Shown here piece by piece: positions 1-63,066 of a stretch of DNA of 64,000 nt. Location of the stretch: IMG/VR virus record IMGVR_UViG_3300044630_003672. The stretch is one strand, 5' to 3'. Origin of the DNA: a virus (taxonomy: Duplodnaviria > Heunggongvirae > Uroviricota > Caudoviricetes). Below the pieces are notes generated by a model, which saw only the letters and a program-made list of their open reading frames with translations, was not told the DNA's origin and did no database searches. Numbering within the stretch: the first letter of the stretch is position 1; each line of letters starts with the position of its first letter. The position numbers and the translations under genes are program-made.

Positions 1-338
1 TGAAACAAATGGTAGGTAGTAATGGTGAAGTTGATTCATACTTCCTAAACATATCGGATGGTGAACCTTACTTTCATGGAAAGGGTATGAGTTATAGTGG
101 TAGTAATGCGGCTAAACATACTCGTAAGATGATGAAATCAATTGAAGGTATGGGTATCAAAGTATTGAGTTATTTCGTTAGTGATAGTAGTTACGAAATG
201 GATGAAAATAGTAGTGGTTCAGCTAGAACATTCAAAGAGTGTTATGGACCTGCTGCTAGTTATATTAACGTAACAAATGTTAATGAGGTAGCACGTACAA
301 TGAACCGATTATTTATGAGCAAACCACAAAATTCATAA
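1..338 (+). CDS. C-terminal fragment of a von Willebrand factor A (vWA) domain protein; the gene begins upstream of the window
   Basis: ORF is open from the window edge. vWA-like motifs 'ISDGEP', 'GIKVLSYFVSD' and a C-terminal 'ASYINVTNVNEVARTMNRLF'. Sits directly upstream of an AAA_5 ATPase, matching the CobT/MoxR-partner arrangement. Confidence 0.5.
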   Translation, partial: KQMVGSNGEVDSYFLNISDGEPYFHGKGMSYSGSNAAKHTRKMMKSIEGMGIKVLSYFVSDSSYEMDENSSGSARTFKECYGPAASYINVTNVNEVARTMNRLFMSKPQNS

Positions 339-415
339 CTGATTGATTATCAACGAGTTACGAAAATCACTCCTAACTCGTTGATTTTCAACCACTTATA
401 ACCCCAAAAAATAAA

Positions 416-448
416 TTTGGTAGATTCAAAAAGATTTCGTATCTTTAC
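416..448 (+). promoter_or_regulatory. Bacteroidota-type sigma-A promoter (TTTGG -33, TATCTTTA -7)
   Basis: 'AAATTTGGTAG-N19-TATCTTTAC', about 55 nt upstream of the 505 start. Confidence 0.6.
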
Positions 449-504
449 ATAGTAAGATTGATAAGAAAGAAACATTTATTATTATATATTAAAACCCCTT
501 AATT

Positions 505-1710
505 ATGGCAAAGCCTAATGTAGACAAAATGAGTAAACAAATCTTTAAAGTTGTAAAGATTGGCTCACATTTCAAACTAGCAAATACTGCTGGTAAAATA
601 GTAGGTACACAAGGAATTGGTACTCCTACTCGTAAAAAAGCTTATGAAGCAGGTAAAGCACTTCGTAAGGTAGTTGGTAGTGGTGGTAAGATTCAATACC
701 GCTTAACCGATATGACTGAATTTGATAACTTGGTTGCTCCATTGAAAAGTAACGCCGAAGTTAATGTAGAGAAGTTGGATAATCATAAAGAGATTACCGA
801 TTTTATCCATAACGAATCGGTTAAACTTAAACCTGAAGGATTGGTTATTTCTGACTTAAAGTGGAAATACCTTATTCGTTCAGCTGTTAGAGCTAAGAAT
901 ATTATGATGACAGGACCGGCTGGTTGTGGTAAGACATTAGCGGCTAAAGCACTTACCAAAGGCTTAAAGAGACCTGATTTCTATTTCAACCTTGGTGCAA
1001 CGCAAGATGCGAGAGCAACCCTAATTGGTAACACACACTTTGATAGTAAGAAAGGTACATTCTTCGCTGAATCTGCTTTCGTAAAAGCAATTAGTACTCC
1101 AAACGCTGTTATCCTATTGGATGAGTTGAGTAGAGCACATCCTGACGCTTGGAATATTCTAATGACTGTATTGGATTTGGGACAACGTTACCTTCGTTTA
1201 GATGAGGCTGTTGATTCTCCAATTGTTAAAGTAGCTGATGGTGTTACTTTTATCGCTACCGCTAACATTGGTGGTGAATATACTTCAACTAGAGTATTGG
1301 ATAGAGCGATATTAGACCGTTTCACTACAATTGAAATGGATGTGTTGAATGATGAGCAAGAGTTGAATCTCTTAAAGTATATGTATCCGCAAGTTAATGA
1401 AGAAGATTTGAAAGCAGTTGCTGAAATTGCTACTCACACTCGTGATATTGCAAAGACAGGTGATGGTAAACTTTCAACCGGTGTTTCAACTCGTGCTAGT
1501 GTAGAAACTGCTGGGTTGTTATACGATGGTTTCAGTTTGTTTGAAGCAGCTGAAATTAGTATGTTCCCATTCTTCTCTAACGATGGTGGTGTAGATAGTG
1601 AAAGAACGTATGTGAAGCAGTTGGTTCAAAAGTATATTAAGGATGATAAAGCTGATGAGGCATTATTCACCGAACCAACCGAAGATGATAGTGAGAAGAT
1701 TGTTTGGTAA
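505..1710 (+). CDS. AAA+ ATPase, AAA_5 / CobS-MoxR-like
   Basis: Walker A 'GPAGCGKT'. 'ILLDELSRAHPDAWNILMTVLD' is the Walker B/sensor region typical of the MoxR/CobS dynein-related AAA family. Confidence 0.85.
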   Translation: MAKPNVDKMSKQIFKVVKIGSHFKLANTAGKIVGTQGIGTPTRKKAYEAGKALRKVVGSGGKIQYRLTDMTEFDNLVAPLKSNAEVNVEKLDNHKEITDFIHNESVKLKPEGLVISDLKWKYLIRSAVRAKNIMMTGPAGCGKTLAAKALTKGLKRPDFYFNLGATQDARATLIGNTHFDSKKGTFFAESAFVKAISTPNAVILLDELSRAHPDAWNILMTVLDLGQRYLRLDEAVDSPIVKVADGVTFIATANIGGEYTSTRVLDRAILDRFTTIEMDVLNDEQELNLLKYMYPQVNEEDLKAVAEIATHTRDIAKTGDGKLSTGVSTRASVETAGLLYDGFSLFEAAEISMFPFFSNDGGVDSERTYVKQLVQKYIKDDKADEALFTEPTEDDSEKIVW

Positions 1711-1735
1711 TTTAAGGGGTTAAATCCAGACATAA

Positions 1736-1767
1736 GGTGGGTGGCTTCGGCCATCCACCATTTTTTG
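1736..1767 (+). terminator. Rho-independent terminator
   Basis: GGTGGGTGGC-TTCG-GCCATCCACC stem with a UUCG tetraloop followed by TTTTTT. Confidence 0.7.
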
Positions 1768-1884
1768 TAAATCCCAAACCCAAAAAAATGGAAAAGATTA
1801 TATTAGCAGATATGGAAAGTAATGGAATTTATTTTTCAGATGAAATTAAAAAAGAATTAGAAAAAGAAAGAGAGGAAATGTATT

Positions 1885-2550
1885 GTGAATACAGTGGATT
1901 ACTTTCGGTTAAAGCATACGAATATGTTAAAGAAGGCAAATGAAAATGAGGTAGTTGATTCCTTTGAGAAAAAGAAAAGGATTAGAGATGCCGCTAAATA
2001 CTATGGCTTATTTTTAGAATCATTGGGATTTGATTATGAGGCTGACCCACAAACAATAGAAACTCCTTTGAGGGTAGCTAAAGCTTGGGTAGATGATTTA
2101 GTAAAAGGTAGTATGACTGAAGCACCGAATATAACTACATTCCCAAATGAAGAAGGGTATGATGGTATTGTTATTCAGACGGGTATCAAAGTGAACTCAA
2201 TGTGCGCACACCACAACTTACCGTTCTATGGTTATGCAGCTGTGGCTTATCTTCCTGAAAAGAATGTGATTGGATTGAGTAAGTTGAATAGGGTTGTTGA
2301 TTGGTTTAGTAGAAGGCCACAAATGCAAGAATCACTAACTGCACAAATACATAAGTTCTTAACTGATAAGTTAGAGTGTGAAAGTGTAGCTGTATCAATT
2401 AGTGGACATCACCTTTGTTGTGGTATGAGAGGTATTCAACATCCTGATTCTTTAATGACTACAAACAAATTTAGTGGAAGATTTTTGGATAGTGATAACT
2501 TGATTAGAGAAGAATTTATGAACGCAATTAAAATGAATAATTTAAAGTAA
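1885..2550 (+). CDS. folE: GTP cyclohydrolase I (FolE)
   Basis: Collinear with FolE over the full length. Catalytic motifs 'SMCAHHNLPF', 'VIGLSKLNRVVDWFSRRPQMQE' and 'SGHHLCCGMRG'. The start could also be Met14 (1924). Confidence 0.9.
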   Translation: MNTVDYFRLKHTNMLKKANENEVVDSFEKKKRIRDAAKYYGLFLESLGFDYEADPQTIETPLRVAKAWVDDLVKGSMTEAPNITTFPNEEGYDGIVIQTGIKVNSMCAHHNLPFYGYAAVAYLPEKNVIGLSKLNRVVDWFSRRPQMQESLTAQIHKFLTDKLECESVAVSISGHHLCCGMRGIQHPDSLMTTNKFSGRFLDSDNLIREEFMNAIKMNNLK

Positions 2551-2554
2551 TAAT

Positions 2555-2797
2555 ATGAAAGTAAATTTAAGCTTACTTAGCAAGATGAGGTCATTCATCG
2601 GATTTGAAATTGGACATAGTGGTTATTTAAAGAAAAACGATGAGGGATATCCTGTATTAGTAAGAACCATTGAATTCAGTTTGGGATTTCTATTCGGATG
2701 GGTATCATTTGAATTTAATAGTGGAAGACAAATTAATTTAGATGAAATAAATCAACAATTAAGAGAAGAAGTATTAAAAGGTAAAAAAATCGGATAA
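2555..2797 (+). CDS. hypothetical protein
   Basis: 80-aa ORF packed immediately after folE. Confidence 0.4.
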   Translation: MKVNLSLLSKMRSFIGFEIGHSGYLKKNDEGYPVLVRTIEFSLGFLFGWVSFEFNSGRQINLDEINQQLREEVLKGKKIG

Positions 2798-2944
2798 TAT
2801 GAATAAGGATACAACAAAAGATTGGATGGATAAGTTAGTGAAAAATTATCGCATACCAGAAGAACAACCCAAAGAAAAGAAAGAACCTGTAAAGTTACTC
2901 AAAGAGTCCCAACTTCGTATCATTATGGAGAGGGATAAAAAAGA

Positions 2945-2978
2945 TTTGGTTAATAAGAAATAATTTCGTATATTTGTA
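2945..2978 (+). promoter_or_regulatory. Bacteroidota-type promoter
   Basis: 'GATTTGGTTAA-N19-TATATTTGTAT'. Confidence 0.6.
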
Positions 2979-2991
2979 TAAATTAATTAAG

Positions 2992-3255
2992 ATGAAAACA
3001 TTTAAAGATTTGGAATTCAACCCGCACCCTAATCACTTGGGTGGTGTTCAAGCTCGTATCTATTTTGATAATGGGTATGGTGCTAGTGTAGTTAAAACTC
3101 CACATACCTACGGTGGTGATATGGGATTGTATGAATTAGCGGTGTTTGGTAAGGATGGGCACATAGCATATGATACACCAGTTACTAATGATGTGGAAGG
3201 TTATTTGAGTGAAGATGATGTAACAAAAATATTGGAACAAATTCAAGAACTATAA
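2992..3255 (+). CDS. hypothetical protein
   Basis: The ORF track starts at a TTG (2974) that lies inside the -7 box. The first ATG (2992, 'MKTFKDLEF') just after the promoter is the more likely start. Confidence 0.5.
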   Translation: MKTFKDLEFNPHPNHLGGVQARIYFDNGYGASVVKTPHTYGGDMGLYELAVFGKDGHIAYDTPVTNDVEGYLSEDDVTKILEQIQEL

Positions 3256-3256
3256 A

Positions 3257-3673
3257 ATGAAGTTATACAACAATAGTGATATGAGATTTGCAGGAACTAA
3301 AAGACAACAATATACATCGGAGAGAGTTCGTAAAATGAGAATGGAACGAGCACTTGTTAAGGCTAAAAAAGATGGTGTGAGTGATTCACAAGTACAAACC
3401 TATTTGGGTAAGTTACAAGCTGCCGGACATATGAAAGTGAGTGGTTTTAAGAAAATGAGTATTGATAGTAAACCGATGGGTATAGGTGTTCAACCTGATA
3501 CGGCATATCTTAAAACTATGAATGTAGAATTTGAGATGTATAATCAGCAGGGTATGAACGATAGACCACATTTTGCAGGGTATCTTCGTTCAGCATCGGA
3601 ATCAGATAAACAATATCAATTAAAAGGATGGTTCAATGAAGATGGTACAATCAGAATTGAACTTGTAAACTAA
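3257..3673 (+). CDS. hypothetical protein
   Basis: 138-aa ORF, tightly packed with its neighbours. Confidence 0.5.
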   Translation: MKLYNNSDMRFAGTKRQQYTSERVRKMRMERALVKAKKDGVSDSQVQTYLGKLQAAGHMKVSGFKKMSIDSKPMGIGVQPDTAYLKTMNVEFEMYNQQGMNDRPHFAGYLRSASESDKQYQLKGWFNEDGTIRIELVN

Positions 3674-3677
3674 TATT

Positions 3678-3872
3678 ATGGCACAATGTAAATGTTGCAA
3701 AAGAGAAAAAGATTTAAGAATGGGTTATTGCTTTGATTGTGTTGAAGCCGAATCTATTATTGAAACAGGATTGGATATGTATGATTCCGAAATTGAAAAG
3801 GTGGATGGACTTACAAACGGAATGAGTAAGTTACAACATATTCTTAAAAATTATATTATTATTAATAAATAA
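3678..3872 (+). CDS. small Cys-rich (zinc-ribbon-like) protein
   Basis: 'CKCCKREKD...CFDC' cysteine pairs. Confidence 0.4.
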   Translation: MAQCKCCKREKDLRMGYCFDCVEAESIIETGLDMYDSEIEKVDGLTNGMSKLQHILKNYIIINK

Positions 3873-3875
3873 ATT

Positions 3876-4367
3876 ATGGGATATAATCCTTATAGATGGT
3901 GGACTAAGGGTAGACCTAACAAACCACTAAAAGCAGAAGCACCATTGTTATTAAAAATACGAAATGGTGATTTTGATTATTCGTATATGTTCGGTGAAGC
4001 TAAAGAGATGAGAGATACTTCTCAAAAAGCATACGAACAGGCTTATAAAAATTATGGTGGTACTGACGAGAAGAATAGAGAACAGGCTGCATTAGAAGCA
4101 AGTAGAATGAAACGTATCAAATCTATTAAGTTAGAGTTGGAAGCTGCCAGAGATGAGGAAATGATATTGTGGAAATTGAGAATGGAATTAAAAAAGGAAT
4201 TCGGAAAGGATTTATGGGATAAGGCAATGGAGAGAAGTAGGGGGAAGGGAACGTTGGAAGATTTATATGAATGGTATCGTAAGAATAGCAGAGTAAAGAA
4301 CCCACAATCAATACAGGATATTCAGTTGAGAAAACCGAATACCAAAGGATTGGAATATTTATTCTAA
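3876..4367 (+). CDS. hypothetical protein (charged, coiled-coil-like)
   Basis: 163-aa ORF. Confidence 0.5.
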   Translation: MGYNPYRWWTKGRPNKPLKAEAPLLLKIRNGDFDYSYMFGEAKEMRDTSQKAYEQAYKNYGGTDEKNREQAALEASRMKRIKSIKLELEAARDEEMILWKLRMELKKEFGKDLWDKAMERSRGKGTLEDLYEWYRKNSRVKNPQSIQDIQLRKPNTKGLEYLF

Positions 4368-4380
4368 ATGAAACGTTAAT

Positions 4381-4581
4381 ATGAAAAATTTGATAAAACT
4401 AGATTCAATTAATGTATGGGTTGGACCGTTGGGTATTATGAATTGTGATGATAACGGCTTACCAATATTAGAAGAATCAAAAAGTTGGGATAATATAGAG
4501 CCGGAATGGTTTCAACAATTATCTAACGAAGATAAAGAAAAAATAAACACAATTATTAATAACAAAAACAACAAAGATTAG
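4381..4581 (+). CDS. hypothetical protein
   Basis: 66-aa ORF. Confidence 0.4.
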   Translation: MKNLIKLDSINVWVGPLGIMNCDDNGLPILEESKSWDNIEPEWFQQLSNEDKEKINTIINNKNNKD

Positions 4582-4583
4582 TT

Positions 4584-4862
4584 ATGGAAATCACAAAGAG
4601 CAGATTCGGACAAGAAAGAAGTATTGAAAGAATTAATCTAAACAAAGTGAGAGTTTTAGGTGAATCACAATTTGTTCGTAAATCAACAAATAAGAATGGT
4701 GATGTAACCCTATTTGATTTTGAAGGTGGACCTGCTTACACGTTAGGCGGTAAGTTATCATTTGAAAAAATGTTATGGAAAATCAATGGAATTGAACCAA
4801 TGGAAAGTGGTTATAAAGACTTGTATGAAGTGAACCTTCATATAGAACCAATTTGGAGATAA
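4584..4862 (+). CDS. hypothetical protein
   Basis: 92-aa ORF. Confidence 0.45.
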   Translation: MEITKSRFGQERSIERINLNKVRVLGESQFVRKSTNKNGDVTLFDFEGGPAYTLGGKLSFEKMLWKINGIEPMESGYKDLYEVNLHIEPIWR

Positions 4863-4863
4863 T

Positions 4864-5055
4864 ATGGAATTAGACCCGATACAACAAGCGGAGTTGGACA
4901 GATTAAACAAAGCATTGGCTAATCAATCCATTCAGCCCGAAGATAAGAAGAAACTTACCCAAAAGAAATTCAATCCTAAAACGGGTGAATTGCAACTATT
5001 TGTTGATAATGGTAAGGGTGGTGTAAAGATGGCATCGGTGAATATCTTCGAATAA
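4864..5055 (+). CDS. hypothetical protein
   Basis: 63-aa ORF whose start overlaps the previous stop (ATAATG). Confidence 0.4.
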   Translation: MELDPIQQAELDRLNKALANQSIQPEDKKKLTQKKFNPKTGELQLFVDNGKGGVKMASVNIFE

Positions 5056-5229
5056 CGAAATCCGAAGGATGAGTCGTAAGGGGAAAAATTTTTGATAGTT
5101 CATACTTATTGGTATGAAACTATTATTACTAAAGATTGAAGCAGCCTTAATTACGTTTGGAATAGCGATGTATGAGTATTTCAAAGGTGGTAACAGGCCT
5201 TGGTATTAAGAAACTAAAAATACAATAAT

Positions 5230-5640
5230 ATGGCATACGGAGAAAAGGTAATAGACCATTACCAAAACCCGCGCAATGTTGGTACGTTGGATAAAAGTAA
5301 ATCAACAGTGGGGACTGGGTTAGTTGGAGCACCTGAATGTGGTGATGTAATGAGACTCCAAATAGAGATTGAAGATGGAATCATAACCGATGCGAAATTT
5401 AAAACGTTTGGATGTGGTTCGGCAATTGCTGCATCTTCCCTAGCAACTGAATGGTTAAAGGGTAAGAGTGTGGATGAGGCGGCAAAGTTAGATAATATGG
5501 ATTTGGTTGAGGAATTATCTCTACCACCTGTTAAGATACATTGTTCGGTTCTTGCTCAAGATGCGGTTCAAGCTGCTATTAACGATTATAGAACAAAGAA
5601 TGGTTTAGAGCCATTACAATTTGAAGAAAAACTACACTAA
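5230..5640 (+). CDS. iscU: Fe-S cluster assembly scaffold protein IscU/NifU-like
   Basis: Near-identical to bacterial IscU along its whole length: 'MAYGEKVIDHYQNPRNVG', 'GAPECGDVMRLQI', 'FKTFGCGSAIAASS' and 'LPPVKIHCSVLA', with the three conserved Cys and the His. Confidence 0.9.
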   Translation: MAYGEKVIDHYQNPRNVGTLDKSKSTVGTGLVGAPECGDVMRLQIEIEDGIITDAKFKTFGCGSAIAASSLATEWLKGKSVDEAAKLDNMDLVEELSLPPVKIHCSVLAQDAVQAAINDYRTKNGLEPLQFEEKLH

Positions 5641-5828
5641 TGAGAAGATTGTTTAGAAGCCGTTATGAGAAGAAAATAGCAGGTATATGTGGTGGGTTAG
5701 CACTTTATACAAATAGTGACCCATCGGTTTGGAGAATCGTTTTTCTAACCCTAATATTTGCACCCGTACCCGTTATTATGTTTTACTTTATAGCTTGGGC
5801 GATAATACCTAAACATCACGCATTATAA
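5640..5828 (+). CDS. PspC-domain membrane protein
   Basis: 'RSRYEKKIAGICGGLALYTNSDPSVWRIVF' followed by a TM helix, the canonical PspC domain signature. ATGA overlap with iscU. Confidence 0.7.
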   Translation: MRRLFRSRYEKKIAGICGGLALYTNSDPSVWRIVFLTLIFAPVPVIMFYFIAWAIIPKHHAL

Positions 5829-5838
5829 AATAAGAGAT

Positions 5839-6138
5839 ATGAAAGAGTTTATTCAAAAATACCAAAAAGCAATTGTAGGAACTGGCGCCGTAGCTGTGTT
5901 AGTACTATGTTACTTCCAACAAAAAGAACTGGCTAAATTAAGAAGTGAGCATGTAGAGGTATCAACCGTACCATATGTGATTGATTCTATACAACACGTA
6001 GTAGATAGTTTGGAAGATGAATTATTTATTAAACACATTACAAACGGAAGATACGAACTAACATTTGAGCACCTAAAAGAAGTGAATCCGAAATTGGGTC
6101 AAGAGATGGAAGATTGGATGTCTCACAATACTGAATAA
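5839..6138 (+). CDS. hypothetical protein (N-terminal TM)
   Basis: 99-aa ORF. Confidence 0.45.
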
Positions 6139-6140
6139 TT

Positions 6141-6473
6141 ATGGTAACACTACAACCTAAAGCATTAGAGCATGTAATTGAATTAATGGTGGAAGGTGGT
6201 TTAACACCTGATACGCATAACTTACGAGTTGGTGTGAAGGGTGGTGGGTGTAGTGGATTATCTTACACAATGGATTTTGATGATAAGATAGAACCAACCG
6301 ATGAAGTAGTTCAGGTGGATGGTGGATTGAAAGTAGTAATTGATAGAAAGAGTTTACTATATCTTTATGGTACTCAATTAACATATTCAGATGGATTAAA
6401 TGGTAAAGGATTCCAATGGGAAAATCCAAACGCTAGTAGAACCTGTGGATGTGGTGAATCATTCTCCCTATGA
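6141..6473 (+). CDS. A-type Fe-S cluster carrier (IscA/SufA/ErpA, HesB family)
   Basis: '[15 protein letters not shown]' and a C-terminal '[11 protein letters not shown]', which are the three conserved Cys of HesB/IscA. Confidence 0.85.
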
Positions 6474-6652
6474 TAAAAAATATACTGATTAAATTATTGA
6501 CCTATCTAATTATGTTACCGATAATTGCTATTGGTATAATTGTAGCTATTGTTTGGAATACATACTTAATTTTTAATTACATATTTTTTAGATTAAAAAG
6601 AAAATGGGCAGCGGGTATAAAAGAGGTCAAAAAAACGAGTCCTAAACAATAA
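6470..6652 (+). CDS. small membrane protein
   Basis: 60-aa hydrophobic ORF. Confidence 0.4.
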
Positions 6653-6663
6653 TCATACTTATA

Positions 6664-6786
6664 TGGGTAAAAAACCTAATAAGATGAGATTAACTAAAAA
6701 ACAAAAGAAGGCACGTATCCATAATAAGATAGCTAAAAAGAGTAGGGCAGTCCTTTACAAGAAGGGGTTATTTGGGAGAAAAACCT
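6664..6786 (+). CDS. small highly basic protein (41 aa)
   Basis: 'MGKKPNKMRLTKKQKKARIHNKIAKKSRAVLYKKGLFGRKT'. Below the ORF-track cutoff; K/R-rich, possibly nucleic-acid-binding. Confidence 0.3.
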
Positions 6787-6868
6787 AAAAACCTATAAGA
6801 TATTTAACTACTTGCATGCCATCCAAGAAACCACCACGAAATCGTTCTGGTGGGATTAAAAAACACCC

Positions 6869-6920
6869 ATAACCCATTGAAAATCAACTGATTATAAGTC
6901 ATTGAAAATCAATGGGTTAT
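6869..6920 (+). repeat. Stem-loop (ATAACCCATTG...CAATGGGTTAT) carrying two CATTGAAAATCAA motifs; member of the intergenic palindromic repeat family
   Basis: 11-bp perfect inverted repeat flanking an internal TTGAnnnTCAA palindrome. Confidence 0.6.
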
Positions 6921-6923
6921 TTA

Positions 6924-6957
6924 TTTGGTAGAATCGGTAAAATTTCGTATATTTGTA
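6924..6957 (+). promoter_or_regulatory. Bacteroidota-type promoter
   Basis: 'TTATTTGGTAG-N19-TATATTTGTAT'. Confidence 0.65.
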
Positions 6958-6972
6958 TATAAATAAAAAGTT

Positions 6973-7512: not shown

Positions 7513-7514
7513 AA

Positions 7515-55253: not shown

Positions 55254-55258
55254 AAATT

Positions 55259-55705: not shown

Positions 55706-55708
55706 TTT

Positions 55709-55912: not shown

Positions 55913-56147
55913 GTTAAAAGAATGGATTAAAGACGGGATTGATATTCGTAAAACAAACGAGGGGTATGTAGTATTCACAATACCAACACAGCATTTCAAT
56001 ATCAAAGAGTTGGACGAATTAACACCTGAAAGATTCAGTAAGGAAGTTGAAAGGCAAGATAAAGCTAATGAACTTACAATTGAATTATTAGGTGAAGCAT
56101 TTGGTAAAAGAGTTGAAGCCGGATTATTTAAAGATTTATTTGATTAG
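55896..56147 (+). CDS. hypothetical protein
   Basis: 83 aa. Confidence 0.4.
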   Translation: MKKMIELKEWIKDGIDIRKTNEGYVVFTIPTQHFNIKELDELTPERFSKEVERQDKANELTIELLGEAFGKRVEAGLFKDLFD

Positions 56148-56149
56148 TT

Positions 56150-56371
56150 ATGAATTGGGATATATTCGGATACATAGGAACTGTAGTGGTCCTTTATTCG
56201 TTCACAATAGAAAACATTTACCGATTGCGTTTAATAAATTCAATCGGTTCTATGTTTTGGATAGTTTACGGATTGGGTATTATGGCGGGACCTACAATTG
56301 TAGTTAATGCTTGTGTATTAATGATTCACATTTATTGGTTTATAAAACATCGTAAAGAATGGCAAAAATAA
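56150..56371 (+). CDS. small membrane protein
   Basis: Two TM segments. Confidence 0.4.
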   Translation: MNWDIFGYIGTVVVLYSFTIENIYRLRLINSIGSMFWIVYGLGIMAGPTIVVNACVLMIHIYWFIKHRKEWQK

Positions 56372-56586
56372 TTTATTTAGAGGACACAATTGCTTTGATG
56401 GCGAATACCGGAAAAATGAATGTAGTAAAACAAATAGCGAAGTTGGGCGAGTTTACTCAAACAAAAGATGGGTATCGTTATATAGTTTTGGACGAAGATA
56501 AACGAAACGATATCTGTCCAATACATAGTACATTATTGAATGAGGACGGAAGTTGTAACAAATGTTTAGATGATAATAACAAATAA
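56359..56586 (+). CDS. hypothetical protein
   Basis: 75 aa. Confidence 0.4.
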   Translation: MAKIIYLEDTIALMANTGKMNVVKQIAKLGEFTQTKDGYRYIVLDEDKRNDICPIHSTLLNEDGSCNKCLDDNNK

Positions 56587-56587
56587 A

Positions 56588-56932
56588 ATGATATTAAAAA
56601 ATCCTGAAAAGTTATTAAAAACAATTATACCAAGTGCAACCGGTAATTTGATTTGGTGTGTAACAAACGTCAATGTAACGATGGATGACGAAATTACATA
56701 TGTATTTCAATTCCAAACGCAAGTGCCTGTTATAAGTTCACCTAATCAGCAATACTATTCTATGACTCGTGCAAGAATTGAGGAAGCTAAGTTAAGTTTT
56801 TATAGAGTTCAACATGAAAATACATATGAATTGTTTTGTTATGGACAAGTACAACGTGGATATTGTACCGATATAGACACAATGGATAAATTTATTGATG
56901 TATTAAGATATATGCTACCAAACACTTATTAA
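56588..56932 (+). CDS. hypothetical protein
   Basis: Start adjusted to 'MILKNPEKL'. Confidence 0.4.
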   Translation: MILKNPEKLLKTIIPSATGNLIWCVTNVNVTMDDEITYVFQFQTQVPVISSPNQQYYSMTRARIEEAKLSFYRVQHENTYELFCYGQVQRGYCTDIDTMDKFIDVLRYMLPNTY

Positions 56933-56933
56933 G

Positions 56934-57230
56934 ATGCTAACAATAGAAAACGAAAAAAAGTTATTAGGTACTATATTGCATGGTAGCGGAAGTGCCGGTC
57001 CAATGGAATGGGTTGTAACTTCAATAAGACCACATTTGAATCACTATGTAATTTTTATTGAGCAAACTGAAAATGGTTGGGACAAGAAAATAGTTTTGGA
57101 CAGAAGTTTTTCACCGTTTAAACTTGGACACCAATACAAATTAGAATGTGGAAATGAAAAAAAGTATATACACAGAGACGATATGAAAAATATTGATATA
57201 TTCAGTAATCATTTAGAATCATTTATTTAG
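56934..57230 (+). CDS. 'MLTIENI' family paralog 1
   Basis: Starts with the conserved 'ATGCTAACAATAGAAAAC'. N-terminal 'MLTIEN', then W-V-V...Y-I-I...G pattern. Confidence 0.55.
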   Translation: MLTIENEKKLLGTILHGSGSAGPMEWVVTSIRPHLNHYVIFIEQTENGWDKKIVLDRSFSPFKLGHQYKLECGNEKKYIHRDDMKNIDIFSNHLESFI

Positions 57231-57231
57231 T

Positions 57232-57540
57232 ATGCTAACAATAGTAAACATAGAAAAACTTTACAAACAGGATGTAGGTGAATGGAGAATAGGTAAAGTA
57301 GTAACATTGGATAGTGCATACCTAATTGAATTAAGAAAATCCAATGGCCTACGATTGCAAGTTAATTTAGAACGAACCGCAATAGGTAAGAGTGATTCGG
57401 CACTTTATGAATTATGGTTTTGGTCTAATCAATCGGGAAGTGGAATACCAATTAGAAGGATATTAAATAAACCGGATTTGAAGTTAGGCACTGTATATGT
57501 GACTGATTTGATAAAAGATATGTTAGAATCTTTAAAATAA
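57232..57540 (+). CDS. 'MLTIENI' family paralog 2
   Basis: 'MLTIVNIEKLYKQDVGEWRIGKVV...'. Confidence 0.55.
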   Translation: MLTIVNIEKLYKQDVGEWRIGKVVTLDSAYLIELRKSNGLRLQVNLERTAIGKSDSALYELWFWSNQSGSGIPIRRILNKPDLKLGTVYVTDLIKDMLESLK

Positions 57541-57545
57541 AAAAT

Positions 57546-57674
57546 ATGAGTATAGAATTTCAATTTATTTGGGGCTTCTTAATAGGAGCCGGAGTTGGTG
57601 CACTAATTGCATTATTTGTGGCACAACGAATGGTAAAAAGAGTAATTAAAAAAGTATTAAATAGTTTCGGATGA
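57546..57674 (+). CDS. small membrane protein (42 aa)
   Basis: 'MSIEFQFIWGFLIGAGVGALIALFVAQRMVKR'. Not in the track. Confidence 0.3.
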   Translation: MSIEFQFIWGFLIGAGVGALIALFVAQRMVKRVIKKVLNSFG

Positions 57675-57979
57675 GTATAAACATTTCAACGGATAGTAGA
57701 CACCTTACAATGAAGGGTAATGGTAAAGTACAAATCAAAACTTCAATACAAATATACGGAACAGGTACTAAAATGCCTGTAACTGTTGAAGCTGATTTTA
57801 CAAACATCCCGCATCACTTACATCAAATCTATTATCAATCCTTAATAAGTCAATACAATACATCCGTCAATGTATATAACAATACAAAGGATGACGAACC
57901 GAAAACAATAAGAGAAAAAAAGAGTGAATGGCGGTTGAATAGGATTGTGGACATAATTAGTAAAGCAATATCTAAATAA
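57671..57979 (+). CDS. hypothetical protein
   Basis: 102 aa; interrupts the paralog array. Confidence 0.4.
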   Translation: MSINISTDSRHLTMKGNGKVQIKTSIQIYGTGTKMPVTVEADFTNIPHHLHQIYYQSLISQYNTSVNVYNNTKDDEPKTIREKKSEWRLNRIVDIISKAISK

Positions 57980-57988
57980 ATAAATCGT

Positions 57989-58186
57989 ATGAATGTTACA
58001 ATAGACGATATCAAAGGAATAGAGCAAGAATTAGACGTAGAATTAACAAAGGAGCAAAGGGATACGATATTAAAGCAATATCAAAGAGTAGTAATGGACA
58101 ATGCGGATAATTGGAATGTTATTTTAAAAGACCTAATAAACGGAATGAATGTTGACAATAGAAAACATACAAAATATAGACGGTAA
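57989..58186 (+). CDS. hypothetical protein
   Basis: 65 aa. Confidence 0.35.
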   Translation: MNVTIDDIKGIEQELDVELTKEQRDTILKQYQRVVMDNADNWNVILKDLINGMNVDNRKHTKYRR

Positions 58187-58475
58187 GGAATTCCAATTGA
58201 GTAGCGGACGGAAGTTTATAATTGGTATCGCAAGAGCATATTATGACCATTATAGTTTTGGGGTATTTCCTTTGATGGAAAACAATGTGGCAAGTATAAA
58301 CGATGGTATTGTATATAAATTGATGCGAACTATAAGGAATAGTAGGGGATATGAAATGACATCGGCAAAACTAAAACAAAATGTTTATGTAACGCCGGAA
58401 AACCTTACAATGAAAAACTTCATATTAGAGTTACACATACAAACTGGAATGATATATGCTCACAATAGAAAATAG
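58149..58475 (+). CDS. 'MLTIENI' family paralog 3
   Basis: 'MLTIENIQNIDGKEFQLSSGRKFIIGI'. Confidence 0.5.
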   Translation: MLTIENIQNIDGKEFQLSSGRKFIIGIARAYYDHYSFGVFPLMENNVASINDGIVYKLMRTIRNSRGYEMTSAKLKQNVYVTPENLTMKNFILELHIQTGMIYAHNRK

Positions 58476-58779
58476 AGGACGGTTAATAAGTGATTCGTTT
58501 TATGATAAGATGGGTATGTATTGGGTAGTGGACAAAATTATAGATGACACCGATGAATACCTAATCTTAATTGAAAATAGAAAAGGCCCAAAAGAAATAT
58601 TTGCTTTGAATAAACAAAACCTACATGGAATTGGATATGAATTTGGAATATCAGCAGGTGGGCCGGGTATGCAAAGAATGTATAAGATTAAAACATACAT
58701 ACCAATTGAAACTATAAGTGATAAGAGGTTATTGATAAAACGAATGACTGAAATGATTGATACCTCATACGATATATAA
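58456..58779 (+). CDS. 'MLTIENI' family paralog 4
   Basis: 'MLTIENRGRLISDSFYDKMGMYWVVDKIIDDTDEYLILIENRKG'. Confidence 0.55.
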   Translation: MLTIENRGRLISDSFYDKMGMYWVVDKIIDDTDEYLILIENRKGPKEIFALNKQNLHGIGYEFGISAGGPGMQRMYKIKTYIPIETISDKRLLIKRMTEMIDTSYDI

Positions 58780-58789
58780 AAAATAATAT

Positions 58790-59113
58790 ATGCTAAAAAT
58801 AAAAAACATACAAAAGATAGTAGGAAAAAAAATACATACACCACATGCACATTGGGTAGTAATGAGTATAGAGGAACAAAAGCATGATTATATTATTAAA
58901 GTAAGATTTGAGTATGGTACTACATTTGGCGTAAAGCATCCAAAGTATGTAAACTTTAAACTATTAAGATATAATGAATTTAGTAGTACGTTAGGTGAGT
59001 GGAAAATGTATAATGACCAAGATAATGGTTATACAATACTAACAAAAGGTTACTTACAATTGAAAATGTTTGTTGGTATATTGGGTGGTCAATTGCATAG
59101 TTTCAGTAATTAA
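58790..59113 (+). CDS. 'MLTIENI' family paralog 5 (divergent N-terminus, MLKIKNI)
   Basis: 'HWVVMSIEEQKHDYIIKVRFEYG'. Confidence 0.5.
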   Translation: MLKIKNIQKIVGKKIHTPHAHWVVMSIEEQKHDYIIKVRFEYGTTFGVKHPKYVNFKLLRYNEFSSTLGEWKMYNDQDNGYTILTKGYLQLKMFVGILGGQLHSFSN

Positions 59114-59123
59114 AACAAATAAT

Positions 59124-59447
59124 ATGCTAACAATAGAAAATACATATAAGATATTAGATGTACCAATAGTTAAGAATCGTGTTGTAGAATATTATATAAG
59201 AAATACTACTCAATATGAAAGAGCATATCAAATACATTTAAGATGTCCGCGTAAATCAAAATCTGACGAGTTATTAGTTTTACTTAGAACTTCGGACGTA
59301 TTTGGTCCTAATATGGAAACAACCTACGCGATGTATGATAATAGTAATCCTACGAGTAGAATATATTTAAGAACAAAGGATATATCGGACATGAGACAGT
59401 TTGTAAGCTCAATAGAATTTTTAGTAAACAAATATATACTATGCTAA
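59124..59447 (+). CDS. 'MLTIENI' family paralog 6
   Basis: Start set to the internal 'MLTIENTYKILDV' (ATGCTAACAATAGAAAAT). The track's longer start overlaps paralog 5. Confidence 0.5.
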   Translation: MLTIENTYKILDVPIVKNRVVEYYIRNTTQYERAYQIHLRCPRKSKSDELLVLLRTSDVFGPNMETTYAMYDNSNPTSRIYLRTKDISDMRQFVSSIEFLVNKYILC

Positions 59448-59749
59448 CAATACAAAACATAGATAAAATAATAAATGTGGGTTCATCTATTAACATATGG
59501 TATATAAGTGAAGCGATAGAAACAACCGATGTTTATAAGGATGTATATGCATTTGCTGTTTCTGTAAACGGTAAGGTACAAAATGTATTTTATTTGAATA
59601 GAGAGAGCCAATATGTAAGTGGCAGAAACGAACCCGTTTATAGGTTATATAAAGATTTTGACCAAAGTAAAGTAAATAGATGGTTGAGTATGCATCAAAT
59701 AACGCCGTATTTTATAGGAAACTTAATTGATAAAATGTTAAAAGAATAG
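59441..59749 (+). CDS. 'MLTIENI' family paralog 7
   Basis: 'MLTIQNIDKIINVGSSINIWYISEAIE'. Confidence 0.55.
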   Translation: MLTIQNIDKIINVGSSINIWYISEAIETTDVYKDVYAFAVSVNGKVQNVFYLNRESQYVSGRNEPVYRLYKDFDQSKVNRWLSMHQITPYFIGNLIDKMLKE

Positions 59750-59750
59750 T

Positions 59751-60077
59751 ATGCTAACAATAGAAAACATAAACATACTCAATAGTAAGTTTGCCGGTAC
59801 ACCCGAATGGCGGATAGGTGAAATGTTTATAGGTGAACAAAACTATATATTTGTAATCCATAAACGGGTAGGTTATTGGACAATCGGGGGTTTTAGGCGT
59901 GATGAGTTGACTATAAAATTGAATAGAGTAAAAACAATAGGTGGGTATGTAATGGAGACCGGACTAGTAAAACAAAGCTTTCATGGACGTTCGGCATGGG
60001 ATATAGAGTATATGAGGACCATAAGTAGTTTTACTTTTTGCTTGGACACTCATATAAAAAATATAGTAAATCAATAA
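59751..60077 (+). CDS. 'MLTIENI' family paralog 8
   Basis: 'MLTIENINILNSKFAGTPEWRIGEMFIGEQNYIFVIHKRVG'. Confidence 0.55.
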   Translation: MLTIENINILNSKFAGTPEWRIGEMFIGEQNYIFVIHKRVGYWTIGGFRRDELTIKLNRVKTIGGYVMETGLVKQSFHGRSAWDIEYMRTISSFTFCLDTHIKNIVNQ

Positions 60078-60080
60078 AAT

Positions 60081-60236
60081 ATGAATAACGAACTAAAAAC
60101 AAAAGATATATTAGAGGGGATAACCTTTATATTAATGATAGTAGCTACAATAGGTATGTTTTGCCTGTTATATGAAGTAAAGGAATTGAGGGAACTAACA
60201 AAGGGTGCAAGTAATTTCCGAACTATAAGAAAATAA
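60081..60236 (+). CDS. small membrane protein (51 aa)
   Basis: 'MNNELKTKDILEGITFILMIVATIGMFCLLYEV...'. Not in the track. Confidence 0.3.
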   Translation: MNNELKTKDILEGITFILMIVATIGMFCLLYEVKELRELTKGASNFRTIRK

Positions 60237-60435
60237 AATCGGACAATAGTAATACATAGTATAATACATATAGTATATTCAGTACTTGTAGTATATATCG
60301 TATCGGTGAATCGGTGTTCGGGTCGATAGGGAAAATTTTTGATAGTGTCTGCCTTGATTAATAGAGAATGGATTAATAGGAAATAAAAATAAGATTTGAA
60401 TATATATTTATAACAAACAATTAAAAACAAATAGT

Positions 60436-60708
60436 ATGGCAATAGATTTTAGTACAAACACGGATACATGGTGGCAAGAATCATTTGAAAGGTATATCAC
60501 TGGTGGTGGGGGTTTTGGAGTTACTGCTGGTATGGGGTTTGAAGCAATAGAGAAACATTACAAGGCGTGTATACCAGCGGATTTTGTAGATAGGGAATTG
60601 ATAACTACTCCAACCGAATGGGTTATAAGAGGGACACATCCAAGAGTTGGTCCATTTCGTTTAAGTGTTCAAAGAGCTGATAGGAGTTGGGAGTTTGTTT
60701 GGGAATAA
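60436..60708 (+). CDS. hypothetical protein (Gly-rich, locally GC-rich)
   Basis: 90 aa. Confidence 0.4.
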   Translation: MAIDFSTNTDTWWQESFERYITGGGGFGVTAGMGFEAIEKHYKACIPADFVDRELITTPTEWVIRGTHPRVGPFRLSVQRADRSWEFVWE

Positions 60709-61012
60709 GAGCGGACGTAGATAAAAATAATTATAGTACAGATGTTAATAGTAGTAATAGTAATAGGAATGTTAGTAGGGTATGGAATAGGTCAGTATAT
60801 AGTAGACAGATACATAAACGAAAATCATAAGGATATAAACAAAGACTAATAGATAATGGGATTAATAACGTTAATAGTAGTAATACTGATATATAGGGAA
60901 ATAAGGAGACAAAATAAAAACAAATAAGTTATGGGAATAGTAATAGGGTTAATAGGTATAATGACTGTATGGTGTGTAATAGACCTAATAAAACAAATCA
61001 ATAGAATAGAAG

Positions 61013-61204
61013 ATGCCGAGTAATGAAATAAACCTCTTTGATATCCTTGCTCTAATAGGTTTTATAGGGTTCTACATAACCTTAAAGATATTGGTATATA
61101 GTAAGGAATACGGTACAAAAGAAAACAAAAAAGATATCGTAATCCGTAGGGGAACTGAATGGGATTACGAACATAAACCAAATGAAAACAAAAAGAATAA
61201 ATAA
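61013..61204 (+). CDS. small membrane protein
   Basis: N-terminal TM. Confidence 0.35.
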   Translation: MPSNEINLFDILALIGFIGFYITLKILVYSKEYGTKENKKDIVIRRGTEWDYEHKPNENKKNK

Positions 61205-61264
61205 GGGGCGTATTAAAGGTAATGGGTCCGAGCTCCTATTGATAACCGCATTAATTACAATGTT

Positions 61265-61459
61265 ATGGATACTAATCACACACACGGTTTAACACAAAGG
61301 GAACGCCTTGAACTTCAACATAAAATACAACGTCTCCAATGGTTATTAAAAGAATGTATTGGGATTGAGGAATACGAGCTTTGTACCCAAATACGAAACC
61401 TAATCAATAAAAAATACGAGTTACTCGCTACCAATAGTACAACAAACGAAATAGAATAG
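61265..61459 (+). CDS. hypothetical protein
   Basis: 64 aa. Confidence 0.35.
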   Translation: MDTNHTHGLTQRERLELQHKIQRLQWLLKECIGIEEYELCTQIRNLINKKYELLATNSTTNEIE

Positions 61460-61835
61460 GGATACTTAAATGGTCCCTTTTTTGTGTCCGAATATTGATA
61501 GTACGATGGTGAGCAAAAGGGTGTTGGGACTTGCGTTGAAACTTGATAAAACCCTATTTTGATACTACTAAAATTTAATTACGTTTTAAGGGGTAAGTGT
61601 CACAATTTTTAATGAAATGTAATTTGATAGTACAAAGTAATTGAAAACCGATGGGTGTCAATGAAAACACACTTTAACACAAAATCCCACTTTTTACCAC
61701 TTCACAATAAAAACGATGTCAAAATTAGTATATGTCAGTCATAATGTGAGGTATATACGAATTCTTTTCCACGCAAAAAAATTTTTTTATATGAATTTAA
61801 TACACTATACTACTGTAACCCTTACTGGCATTAGA

Positions 61836-61869
61836 TTTGGTGGAATGGATTTTTTTTCGTATATTTGTA
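61836..61869 (+). promoter_or_regulatory. Bacteroidota-type promoter
   Basis: 'GATTTGGTGGAATGGATTTTTTTTCGTATATTTGTAT'. Confidence 0.65.
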
Positions 61870-61905
61870 TATCTAATTAATCTATTTAAAATCTAAAAGA
61901 TATTT

Positions 61906-62262
61906 ATGCGTGTAAGTAATAAAATAGGAATGAAGTTTGATTGTAACCGTTTATGGAATTGGGCTCATGAAAAACTGGGTGAAAGCAGATGTGGAGCAAT
62001 TGCTTTTTACTGGGATACCAAAGAGGATGCCGAATGTGGTTACTACGATTGGGAAAAAACAATTTGGATTAATTTAGCACAATGTAAACGAATGGTGGCG
62101 GTTCAGAAAACAATTCTACACGAATGGACACATGCACAACAGTCATACCGCTGGTACAATCATTATCAAATTAAATACGGGTACAAAAATAACCCATACG
62201 AAATACAAGCAAGGGAAAACGAAAAACTTGTCAAACGTGCATACAGAAAGAAAGGAAAGTAA
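61906..62262 (+). CDS. small HExxH-motif protein, paralog of 34419
   Basis: 'ILHEWTHAQQSYRWYNHYQIKYGYKNNPYEIQAREN'. Confidence 0.5.
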   Translation: MRVSNKIGMKFDCNRLWNWAHEKLGESRCGAIAFYWDTKEDAECGYYDWEKTIWINLAQCKRMVAVQKTILHEWTHAQQSYRWYNHYQIKYGYKNNPYEIQARENEKLVKRAYRKKGK

Positions 62263-62326
62263 AGAAAAAAAGACTCATAAAAATACTCATGTCAAACCAG
62301 GTGAGCAAGTGGCATCAAATCGTGCC

Positions 62327-62602
62327 ATGCATAACGATATGAGGTTAATGGAAAATGGTGAGGGTGAATACGATGCGGTTGTCATAAGAGGTGACAGGTA
62401 TGCATTGATAAGAGGTGAATACATCCCTATTGGTTCAAATTTCCATTATCCGAAAGTCTGGGGTAGGAAATACGCCGCCACTACATTGGTCCAAACGATT
62501 ATGGCGGACAAACGTAAACAAATAGAGGATGCCGAAAGGGAACTTCTAAAACTACAAAGGTGTTTAGATAAAATAAATGAGTGGTCCGATACTGACCTAT
62601 AA
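62327..62602 (+). CDS. hypothetical protein
   Basis: Start set to the first Met after the upstream stop. The track's 62132 start overlaps 61906 out of frame. Confidence 0.35.
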   Translation: MHNDMRLMENGEGEYDAVVIRGDRYALIRGEYIPIGSNFHYPKVWGRKYAATTLVQTIMADKRKQIEDAERELLKLQRCLDKINEWSDTDL

Positions 62603-62885
62603 TGTTATATATGCTTACAGAACTTCAAATGATTCAACGGGCTGTCCAATTAGGTATGGACGAAGAGTTAGTTAGTTATGCCAAACAAATAAAAAGACAA
62701 CTGGAAACCGATGGTGACACGGCAGACTGGTTGGATTGTTTAGAGATGGCATATAACGAATTGATTATCAACTAATTAAAAAGTTATCCACACCTGTTGG
62801 AAATATCAGGTATTTTTCGTAACTTTAGGGAGTGGAGGGCGGGGTACGTCCTTTGAGTGAGACCCCCAATAACGGATATTATGTT

Positions 62886-63066
62886 AAGTCCACAACTCGT
62901 TGATAATCAATGTGTTACGATGGAAAAACCCCTAAATCGCCTATAAATTATATTATGTTAAGTCCGGCTGCCGCAAGTGGTTGATAATCAATGACTTACC
63001 AAGATCCAGCTTTTTACCAAAAAATTCTTGATTGAGTATCAACGAGTTACGCTTTGGGGACCAAAA
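62886..63066 (+). repeat. Intergenic repeat block: tandem 'ATTATGTTAAGTCC...GTTGATAATCAATG(T/A)(G/C)TTAC' units plus the conserved element 'AAAAAATTCTTGATTGAGTATCAACGAGTTACGCTTTGGGG'
   Basis: Two direct copies about 77 bp apart, each containing a TTGAnnnTCAA dyad. Third copy of the 37-bp element. Confidence 0.7.

Follow-up and report, generated by a model that had tools for sequence, protein, structure and literature searches.

Integration host factor (IHF) recognises a site in which the element WATCAA begins near the centre and TTR follows 4 bp further 3′; at the proline kinks there are two ApA steps with a separation of 9 bp (PMC1874591). A second study identifies T44 with the central T of TTR and likewise gives 9 bp between the kinks (bioRxiv 10.1101/382655). 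The flanks of the site are clamped by the protein body, with TTR on one side and often an A-tract on the other (PMC1874591; bioRxiv 10.1101/382655). Here we describe a family of palindromes built on TTGANNNTCAA (TTGAnnnTCAA) in a 64-kb stretch of DNA from a virus of the class Caudoviricetes (IMG/VR record IMGVR_UViG_3300044630_003672; the whole stretch of 64,000 nucleotides is called the window below). We propose, with a probability of about 0.55, that an architectural protein of the IHF/HU family, which bends DNA, binds these palindromes with high affinity as symmetric sites; they lie upstream of a subset of early-type promoters. As far as our literature searches show, symmetric IHF-type sites in this form have not been described before.

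IHF modulates the lambda pL and Mu Pe promoters by upstream bending, and homodimeric IHF-like proteins such as BHFa are known in Bacteroidota. TF1 of Bacillus phage SPO1 is a phage-encoded HU-family protein that has preferred sites near early promoters and needs hydroxymethyluracil DNA. In the RIP/RIB elements of Escherichia coli (BIME-1; BIME, bacterial interspersed mosaic element) an IHF site lies between two repetitive extragenic palindromic (REP) sequences. Classical HU/IHF-like proteins exist in Bacteroidota, the integration host factor of CTnDOT being one, alongside a large expansion of HU-HIG proteins (PMC5499826). The promoter-early stem-loop (PeSL) cassettes of T4-type phages were described by Arbiol et al. 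(2010; PMC2839356) and Comeau et al. (2014; PMC4122927), and background on REP and BIME sequences is given in PMC2817692.

The TTGAnnnTCAA dyad has 21 exact matches in the window, against 2.78 expected, and none of 100 shuffles reached this number. Eighteen of the matches, together with a degenerate copy at 46767, form a family of 19 copies of 25-29 bp with the consensus (c/t)(a/g)TAAsTc(a/g)TTGA-www-TCAA(c/t)gAsTTA(c/t)(g/a), i.e. yrTAAsTcrTTGA-www-TCAAygAsTTAyr; the matches at 19082, 31815 and 61308 lie outside the family and are in line with chance expectation. The copies of this one genome are not near-identical but differ from each other at all N positions. They occupy eight intergenic loci (334-400, 6868-6921, 18158-18186, 31447-31541, 35516-35608, 40184-40260, 46742-46795 and 62752-63051), where they lie directly 3′ of the stop codon of the preceding gene. 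At four places the stop codon is inside a palindrome (336-338, 35518-35520, 46752-46754 and 62773-62775), and at 336 and 35518 the conserved TAA of the left arm is itself the stop. The initial annotation of this DNA, made from the sequence without database searches, had recognised the dispersed dyads, which the counts bear out; it overlooked the copy at 18158, and its statement that they mark the only long non-coding gaps was too strong, as 18 gaps of at least 90 bp exist outside the tRNA/GOLLD region and just eight of these carry palindromes. The 37-bp element that it reported is present in three copies at 31510, 35577 and 63020 (repeat family D12), as part of a similarity of ~94 nt that includes the downstream promoter. 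This element is asymmetric: it has a single + strand core, AATCAATTAGTTA, and its left half-site is replaced by AAAAATTCTTGA. The copies are as follows; the palindromes have no strand assigned, and distances are to the −33 element of the promoter downstream.

334-362: palindrome 1a, with an IHF-type core on each strand; the open reading frame (ORF) at 9-338 stops at the TAA of the palindrome's left arm
372-400: palindrome 1b, with a − strand core; centre 30 bp upstream of the −33 element at 416
6868-6921: palindromes 2a and 2b, sharing 4 bp at a period of 25 bp; + strand cores in both; orthologues in L194-L197
18158-18186: palindrome 3, with cores on both strands
31447-31501: palindromes 4a and 4b, of which 4b is 31473-31501
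35516-35569: palindromes 5a and 5b, at a period of 25 bp; 5a supplies the TAA stop of the ORF at 35353-35520
40184-40212: palindrome 6a, with cores on both strands
40232-40260: palindrome 6b, which has a T-rich tail; distance upstream 37 bp
46742-46795: palindromes 7a and 7b, 7b being degenerate (TTGGttcTCAA); overlap with the stop of the ORF at 45795-46754
62752-62780: palindrome 8a, overlapping the stop of the ORF at 62602-62775
62891-62919: palindrome 8b
62972-63000: palindrome 8c
31510-31546, + strand: 37-bp element, copy 1; centre 45 bp upstream of the −33 element
35577-35613, + strand: 37-bp element, copy 2; 45 bp upstream of the −33 element
63020-63056, + strand: 37-bp element, copy 3; 46 bp upstream of the −33 element

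Each half of the palindrome, W-A-T-C-A-A-N4-T-T-A, agrees exactly with the E. coli IHF consensus WATCAANNNNTTR (WATCAA-N4-TTR), a proteobacterial consensus that may not be that of the host. This consensus has 33 matches in the window (10.4 expected), 25 of which are inside palindromes, and 18 of the 19 copies carry a perfect IHF-type core on at least one strand. We aligned 173 non-redundant sites, drawn from the window together with those IMG/VR loci that each had two or more copies among the matches listed. Columns 14-19 of this alignment are W, A>T, T, C, A and A, so that the core begins at the site centre, and the TTR element follows four variable columns after the core, in columns 24-26 (T in 171/173, T in 173/173, and A in 163 or G in 8). 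The TT and AA steps of TTGAnnnTCAA are 9 bp apart with W at the dyad; since the central T of TTR is at position 44 (bioRxiv 10.1101/382655), this W falls between the kinks. With a core and a TTR on both sides, the palindrome can thus be described as a symmetrised IHF site. In the symmetric copies the second TTR stands where IHF sites may have an A-tract, and the 37-bp variant carries an A5 run. This run presumably lies 3-4 bp further out than the A-tract of the lambda H′ site. Contexts typical of IHF sites are also present, namely the 3′ ends of tRNA or tRNA-like sequences beside integrase genes, DnaA boxes, and positions upstream of promoters.

The pattern of conservation is that of a protein site. 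Across the 173 sites the near-invariant columns are T2 A3 A4, T9 T10 G11 A12, T16 C17 A18 A19 and T24 T25 A26, and the arms vary almost independently, with Watson-Crick pairs at 83 versus 70 expected, 77 versus 72 and 102 versus 79; G:T and A:C mismatches are equally frequent and show no strand bias. The copies in the window have 1-7 non-Watson-Crick positions per 13 potential pairs and fold energies of 0 to −11.9 kcal/mol (n = 19). In 15 of the 19 there are 2-7 non-Watson-Crick positions in the 13-bp arms, nine have 3-7 true mismatches, and the + strand ΔG is weaker than −5.6 kcal/mol in ten. T-rich tails follow three of the 19 copies (31473, 6893 and 40232), and in a terminator scan of 31000-47500, which covers ten of the 19, only palindrome 4b (31473-31501) passes, with a 12-bp stem followed by TTTTT. 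Selection was measured in 14 orthologous site clusters among closely related genomes, over 14 core positions and 40 flanking positions. The core positions underwent 0.29 changes per position (four in 14), compared with 1.38 for the N positions, 1.67 for the loop and 1.40 for the flanks (binomial p = 1.3e-4); the core thus changes about five times more slowly than its surroundings. Changes at N positions in the relatives were not compensated in the opposite arm, and pairing was not restored. As the fixed positions are conserved and pairing is not selected, the pattern points to contacts of a protein on double-stranded DNA rather than to a selected RNA or DNA hairpin, and recognition by a dimeric protein is the better fit. 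The sites also keep their places in relatives whose proteins are 44-85% identical, as the initial annotation had proposed to check: the palindrome at the CobT/CobS-like junction is found in L018 and L036, and that upstream of the homologue of the ORF at 46981 in L056 and L029.

A promoter-like site follows every palindrome block, in line with the initial annotation, and it is of the Bacteroidetes type (TTTG-N20-TAnnTTTR). The pattern TTTGG-N19-TAnnTTTR has 21 matches in the window, all on the + strand, against 0.41 expected; the sigma-70 consensus shows no enrichment (85 found, 94 expected). The centres of the sites are found 17-170 bp 5′ of the −33 element, the promoter-proximal one mostly at 17-45 bp, and no site overlaps a −33 or −7 element. 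One promoter subclass, with the −7 region TTTTGTAGTTTTA (31572, 35639, 40283 and 63083), always has palindromes upstream. The promoter-like sites downstream of the eight loci are all on the + strand:

416-447, + strand: promoter (TTTGG-N19-TATCTTTA), ahead of the AAA/CbbQ-type ATPase gene at 505-1710
6924-6955, + strand: promoter ahead of the HAD_SAK_2 gene; contains the breakpoint of a three-gene cassette indel in relatives
18214-18245, + strand: promoter ahead of tRNA-Met
31572-31603, + strand: promoter of the second subclass (TTTTGTAGTTTTA); repeat family D11
35639-35670, + strand: promoter of the second subclass
40283-40314, + strand: promoter of the second subclass
46926-46957, + strand: promoter ahead of the ORF at 46981-47451
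63083-63113, + strand: promoter (TTGG-N19-TAGTTTTG), ahead of the ORF starting at 63135

Read from the sequence, the binder and its action on the DNA and on transcription would be as follows. The two inverted IHF cores (W-ATCAA-NNNN-TTA) share the central base, and the TT/AA steps would be the two proline-intercalation kinks; a homodimeric IHF-like protein would be expected to prefer such a symmetrised site. One to four sites stand upstream of a subset of promoters of the host-sigma type, which are early-like, and a sharp bend in the upstream DNA, which for an IHF-type site would be one of ~160°, may modulate these promoters. The asymmetric 37-bp variant, with its one core, is joined to a single promoter subclass, the second, at a constant distance of 45-46 bp, and the two copies paired with DnaA boxes may belong to modules resembling an origin or a DnaA-reactivating sequence (DARS). 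The binder would most probably be a host protein; a copy carried by the phage beyond the window is less probable. The host protein is favoured by the finding of no HU/IHF homologue in the window or the loci of the family and of no HTH (helix-turn-helix) family among the window ORFs, together with the occurrence of the sites in chromosomes and mobile elements. Pfam scans of 88 small ORFs of the window found none of the HTH, RHH (ribbon-helix-helix) or HU families, so that the phage-encoded HTH protein for which the initial annotation advised a search is not among them. The sampled phage DNA amounts to ~90 kb of a genome of perhaps 200-250 kb. A shared candidate binder was also sought in the motif-bearing loci; the genes that recur there, PhoH, DUF932 and GP88, do not encode DNA-binding regulators.

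The palindrome is not confined to this phage. A degenerate scan of IMG/VR used a loose pattern, and its matches include chance ones, so only loci with at least two position weight matrix (PWM) hits were counted. On this basis the palindrome is present in at least ~57 viral-contig loci of 26-50% G+C, usually as pairs spaced 25-26 or 48-50 bp apart. Bacteroidetes-type promoters lie beside the sites in the low-GC loci and TTGACA-type promoters in the higher-GC loci. In five loci of 39-47% G+C (L078, L038, L087, L111 and L139) two palindromes flank a G+C-rich hairpin of ~20 nt, e.g. gaccccttcggggtc; this palindrome-hairpin-palindrome unit brackets nearly every gene or gene pair (DUF932, GP88, PhoH) and is followed by TTGACA-type promoters. 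L139 is a 139-kb contig of a 'Saccharibacteria' metagenome-assembled genome (MAG) that resembles such a palindrome-bearing phage. Cultured phages gave only single partial blastn matches to a consensus 35-mer, e.g. in Azobacteroides phage ProJPt-Bp1 and in Brevundimonas phage StAshley; when those regions were scanned with the PWM no additional copy appeared, and the matches were set aside as chance or isolated sites.

In bacterial genomes the strict 25-mer palindrome occurs at 68 places, where we estimate ~0.1 by chance: 40 in Bacteroidota, 16 in Fibrobacterota, six in the PVC group (Planctomycetes-Verrucomicrobia-Chlamydiae) and only three in Proteobacteria. A tRNA or tmRNA gene ends 0-15 nt before 11 of the 68. 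In L175 and L182 a tRNA-like 3′ end, where ARAGORN called no tRNA, is followed by the palindrome and then directly by a tyrosine integrase gene, and in L176 and L183 excisionase-like HTH_17 and primase-like genes adjoin the palindrome. By analogy, the order of tRNA end, palindrome and integrase would be the classic position of IHF sites in attachment (att) arms. Judged by these matches, the sites appear to be widely common to uncultured phages and to the mobile elements of the FCB (Fibrobacteres-Chlorobi-Bacteroidetes) group. The Saprospiraceae MAG JAYUUR01 holds 12 copies inside a repeated element; there the palindrome TTTAACTCATTGATAATCAATGAGTTAAA has conserved flanks and is in several cases near a contig end (contigs L132, L148, L149, L153, L155, L157, L170, L172 and L174). 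This repeat is probably an element resembling an insertion sequence, with an IHF-type site near its terminus.

Two palindromes of the window are accompanied by DnaA boxes, the sole perfect ones that it contains:

18191-18199, + strand: perfect DnaA box TTATCCACA, 5 nt after palindrome 3, inside the 17-mer TTAAAAAGTTATCCACA
62784-62792, + strand: perfect DnaA box after palindrome 8a, in the identical 17-mer context TTAAAAAGTTATCCACA

Among the phage loci perfect DnaA boxes are ~30-fold enriched within 60 bp of palindromes, and double boxes stand beside them in L009, L041 and L096. DnaA-like boxes with up to one mismatch are not enriched across the window (29 found, 29.7 expected).

Several observations weigh against an IHF/HU-family binder acting at promoters. 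No homologue of IhfA, IhfB, HupB or TF1 came up in six-frame phmmer searches of the window, the loci of the family or the extended loci, the lone HU/IHF match being in L089, a contig with fewer than two PWM hits. The IHF consensus derives from Proteobacteria, and the Bacteroidota homologues may differ in specificity. The four N positions are non-random here (yGAs) and the outer c-g/y-r positions are semi-conserved, which hints at an extra or a different specificity. Palindromes are upstream of only ~9 of ~24 Bacteroidetes-type promoters; as most promoters have no site, the suggestion in the initial annotation that the repeats partition the genome into transcription modules was overstated. No helical phasing between site and promoter was found (distances of 17, 30, 37, 42, 45 bp and more), and such variable spacing is unlike the strict geometry of a bend-activator. 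Lastly, some bacterial loci (e.g. L166 and L131) consist of a tRNA, a palindrome and a T-run with no mobile-element gene nearby, and there the palindrome may have a role as a terminator.

In a different account the palindromes are operators or boundary sites of a dimeric or tetrameric protein outside the HU family, either phage-encoded outside the window or specific to Bacteroidota (e.g. HU-HIG), which silences or insulates early units, the likeness to IHF being partly coincidence. We regard this as unlikely. The palindrome has two conserved blocks per half-site, and yGAs and the outer cg/ta pairs exceed the IHF consensus; the regular arrays, at 25-26 or 48-50 bp, suggest cooperative binding, the same site occurs in phages whose hosts differ in promoter type, and the HU-HIG expansion of Bacteroidetes has been proposed to recognise invading DNA (PMC5499826). 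Against this stand the 88 small ORFs with no HTH, RHH or other DNA-binding Pfam family and the sites' avoidance of the −33 and −7 elements, and a phage-specific regulator would leave unexplained the single sites by integrase genes and tRNAs in the chromosomes of several phyla. An operator of a phage HTH repressor, in particular, is not supported, with site centres 17-170 bp away from the −33 element and no HTH or RHH gene among the window ORFs, though a regulator may be encoded outside the window. The initial annotation had read the dyads as operators for a dimeric regulator; recognition of double-stranded DNA by a protein survives from that idea (the arms are independent and fixed positions are selected), while the IHF consensus points to an architectural bender and not to an HTH repressor. 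A bolder picture, which we consider doubtful, has a dedicated undescribed protein, phage-encoded or of the HU-HIG type, that mimics or competes with IHF and recognises the palindrome, the arrays splitting large phage genomes into insulated domains of transcription and replication, and the system being common to a broad group of large uncultured phages of FCB bacteria and to the integrative elements of their hosts.

A hairpin role, in the transcript or in single-stranded DNA, is rather improbable for the palindromes, whether as (bidirectional) terminators or as elements of RNA processing or stability; it would correspond to the stem-loop half of the T4-type PeSL. Their position right after stop codons and right before promoters is PeSL-like, the copy at 31473 passes the terminator scan, those at 6893 and 40232 have T-rich tails, and several bacterial copies sit between a tRNA gene and a T-run. 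Yet the arms neither covary nor show a strand bias of G:U versus A:C, they are weak and mismatched in most copies, and their N positions are substituted at the neutral rate without compensation while the fixed positions are conserved; nor does a terminator need a single sequence to be kept across phages of 26-50% G+C. The bidirectional terminators considered in the initial annotation fit at most 1-3 of the 19 copies. Its other suggestion, a mobile repeat resembling a miniature inverted-repeat transposable element (MITE), or more broadly MITE/REP-like repeats or recombinase targets that spread in and between phages and drive modular shuffling, seems to us very improbable. The family is indeed dispersed and intergenic, its pairs often form larger inverted structures, gene order in the relatives is strongly shuffled, and the 12 Saprospiraceae copies lie in a repeated element, several at contig ends. 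However, copies of the same genome differ at all N positions, orthologous copies keep their place across relatives, the mapped cassette breakpoints of close relatives are in promoter repeats and most shuffling junctions of L001 have no palindrome, and Pfam scans of the window ORFs revealed no transposase or REP-associated tyrosine transposase (RAYT) gene. An origin function is also improbable: here 18158-18199 and 62752-62792 would be parts of phage origins or of DnaA-titrating modules, each an IHF-type site with a DnaA box, and the other copies would be auxiliary. Both perfect boxes of the window follow a palindrome by 5 nt in an identical 17-mer, the double boxes and the enrichment in other phages agree with this, and IHF-DnaA cooperation is canonical at oriC and DARS2 (PMC10380432 and PMC11724364); set against these are one-mismatch boxes at expectation, a cumulative GC skew that does not turn in the window, and a majority of palindrome loci without a box. 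Integron attC (RYYYAAC/GTTRRRY), dif/Xer, serine-recombinase, Fur and FNR sites were ruled out by length, central spacing or the pattern of conserved positions. Of these readings we favour the IHF/HU-family bender, at the probability given above.

Comparison with close relatives located the cassette junctions. A three-gene RNA-ligase cassette lies between the palindromes and the HAD gene in L195-L197 and is absent from the window, its junction being inside the promoter at 6924-6955. The Band_7 cassette of the window (51154-52456) is found in L196 at the promoter 2945-2976 (position 2964), with both junctions in promoter sequence. The promoter repeats that bear junctions relative to L195-L197 are 2945-2976, 6924-6955, 51127-51158 and 52416-52446, and one relocation spans 48 kb. 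The breakpoints checked in L001 showed mostly no palindrome at the shuffling junctions. The promoters appear to behave as PeSL-like recombination substrates; the palindromes do not, and stay in place.

The window has 32% G+C and carries all of its genes on the + strand. It contains 26 tRNA genes and a full-length GOLLD RNA (RF02032) at 19211-19624 (+; 306.8 bits, model positions 1-416), with tRNA-Met (18267) on one side and the main cluster of the other 25 tRNA genes (20057-25046) on the other. When 150 and then 88 ORFs of the window were scanned with Pfam, nothing but accessory metabolic genes came to light. The many genes of this kind include those for tryptophan halogenase, GTP cyclohydrolase I, NifU, TerC, bilin reductase and Cpn10, as well as a Kyano_Gp96 domain, whereas no core gene for structure or replication was seen in the window. 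A megablast search of 8 kb against INPHARED gave no match, so that cultured phages offer no close match; the nearest proteins are those of Microcystis phage Mel-JY01, of huge uncultured phages and of T4-like phages. A T4-type affiliation is hinted at by the Kyano_Gp96 domain, by a ligase 45% identical to that of the T4-like phage Cr30 and by the cyanomyovirus-like accessory genes. Many metagenomes hold near-identical or related contigs: L194 matches window 1-11710 at 99.99% identity, L200 matches 53679-64000 at 100%, and the intergenic regions of L004 are identical to those of the window. Gene order in relatives is heavily shuffled. We infer that the hosts are Bacteroidota or other FCB bacteria.

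A few further features of the window were recorded. Five Bacteroidetes-type promoters (18102, 18214, 18450, 18579 and 18680) are packed into the 610 bp of 18102-18711, upstream of tRNA-Met and the GOLLD RNA, and the ~870 bp of 18340-19210 hold no ORF or known RNA and may encode unannotated small RNAs. A hairpin carrying a T-run (AAGTCTTGGtaattCCAAGACTTTTTT, 52404-52446) shares sequence with a promoter's −33 element, forming a true terminator-promoter composite, unlike the palindromes. Within 62797-62970 a non-coding, G+C-rich segment (GGGAGTGGAGGGCGGGGTACGTCC...) comes after a promoter-like site (TTGG..TAACTTTA) and is itself succeeded by two copies of the direct repeat ATTATGTTAAGTCC, each just 5′ of a palindrome; this could be a small RNA or an additional protein site. 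Between 56934 and 60077 there are about eight tandem paralogous ORFs of ~100 amino acids each with the N-terminus MLTIEN... (starts at 56934, 57232, 58149, 58456, 58790, 59124, 59441 and 59751), the copy number of which varies among the relatives L198-L201.

If the proposed function is correct, the palindrome would be the first sequence definition, drawn from phage and mobile-element DNA, of a high-affinity site (symmetric, 25-29 bp) for the IHF-like protein of Bacteroidota and Fibrobacterota. Such a definition would help to locate att sites, origins and architecturally regulated promoters in these phyla, and would aid the design of genetic tools for Bacteroidota and host prediction for uncultured phages. 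Uncultured lake phages would, as a large group, also turn out to draw on a bending protein of the host at a defined subset of early promoters. Promoter-mediated modular shuffling, the PeSL idea known from T4-type coliphages and vibriophages, would be extended to phages with Bacteroidetes-type promoters.

The likeness to PeSL lies in the architecture, since all eight loci have the order inverted repeat, AT-rich stretch, host-type early promoter and gene start (PMC4122927), as well as in the setting, where small same-strand ORFs are numerous and tRNAs and accessory genes occur, and in close relatives that differ by indels and moves of cassettes with junctions in the promoter part of the repeated element. 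The differences are that PeSL stem-loops are lineage-specific terminators containing G+C, whereas the palindromes here keep one sequence across very different phages, are mostly poor hairpins and terminators and show the conservation of a protein site; that the promoters are Bacteroidetes-type and not sigma-70; and that the breakpoints seen here are in the promoter half and not in the palindrome. The loci with G+C-rich hairpins (L078, L038, L087 and L111) resemble E. coli RIP/RIB as dispersed intergenic composites of IHF-type sites and G+C-rich palindromes, although their order is inverted (IHF-hairpin-IHF and not REP-IHF-REP), they are phage-borne, no RAYT transposase was seen, and the low-GC window lacks the G+C-rich hairpin. 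As with SPO1 TF1, an HU/IHF-family protein is predicted to bind specific sites beside phage early promoters; unlike in SPO1, no HU-family gene was found in the window or in the sampled flanks. Compared with the IHF sites of Proteobacteria and their phages, where the core is on one side and the A-tract on the other, the sites here are symmetric, their N positions are semi-conserved (yGAs), they form arrays of 2-4 with a period of 25 bp or ~48 bp, and the inferred hosts are Bacteroidota or other FCB bacteria, for which we found no description of HU/IHF binding specificity in the literature. The conserved bases, their spacing, the kink steps 9 bp apart and the W at the dyad are nevertheless the same as in those IHF sites, among them H′, H1 and H2 of lambda attP, and so are the settings: att arms by integrase genes, DnaA boxes and the upstream regions of promoters.

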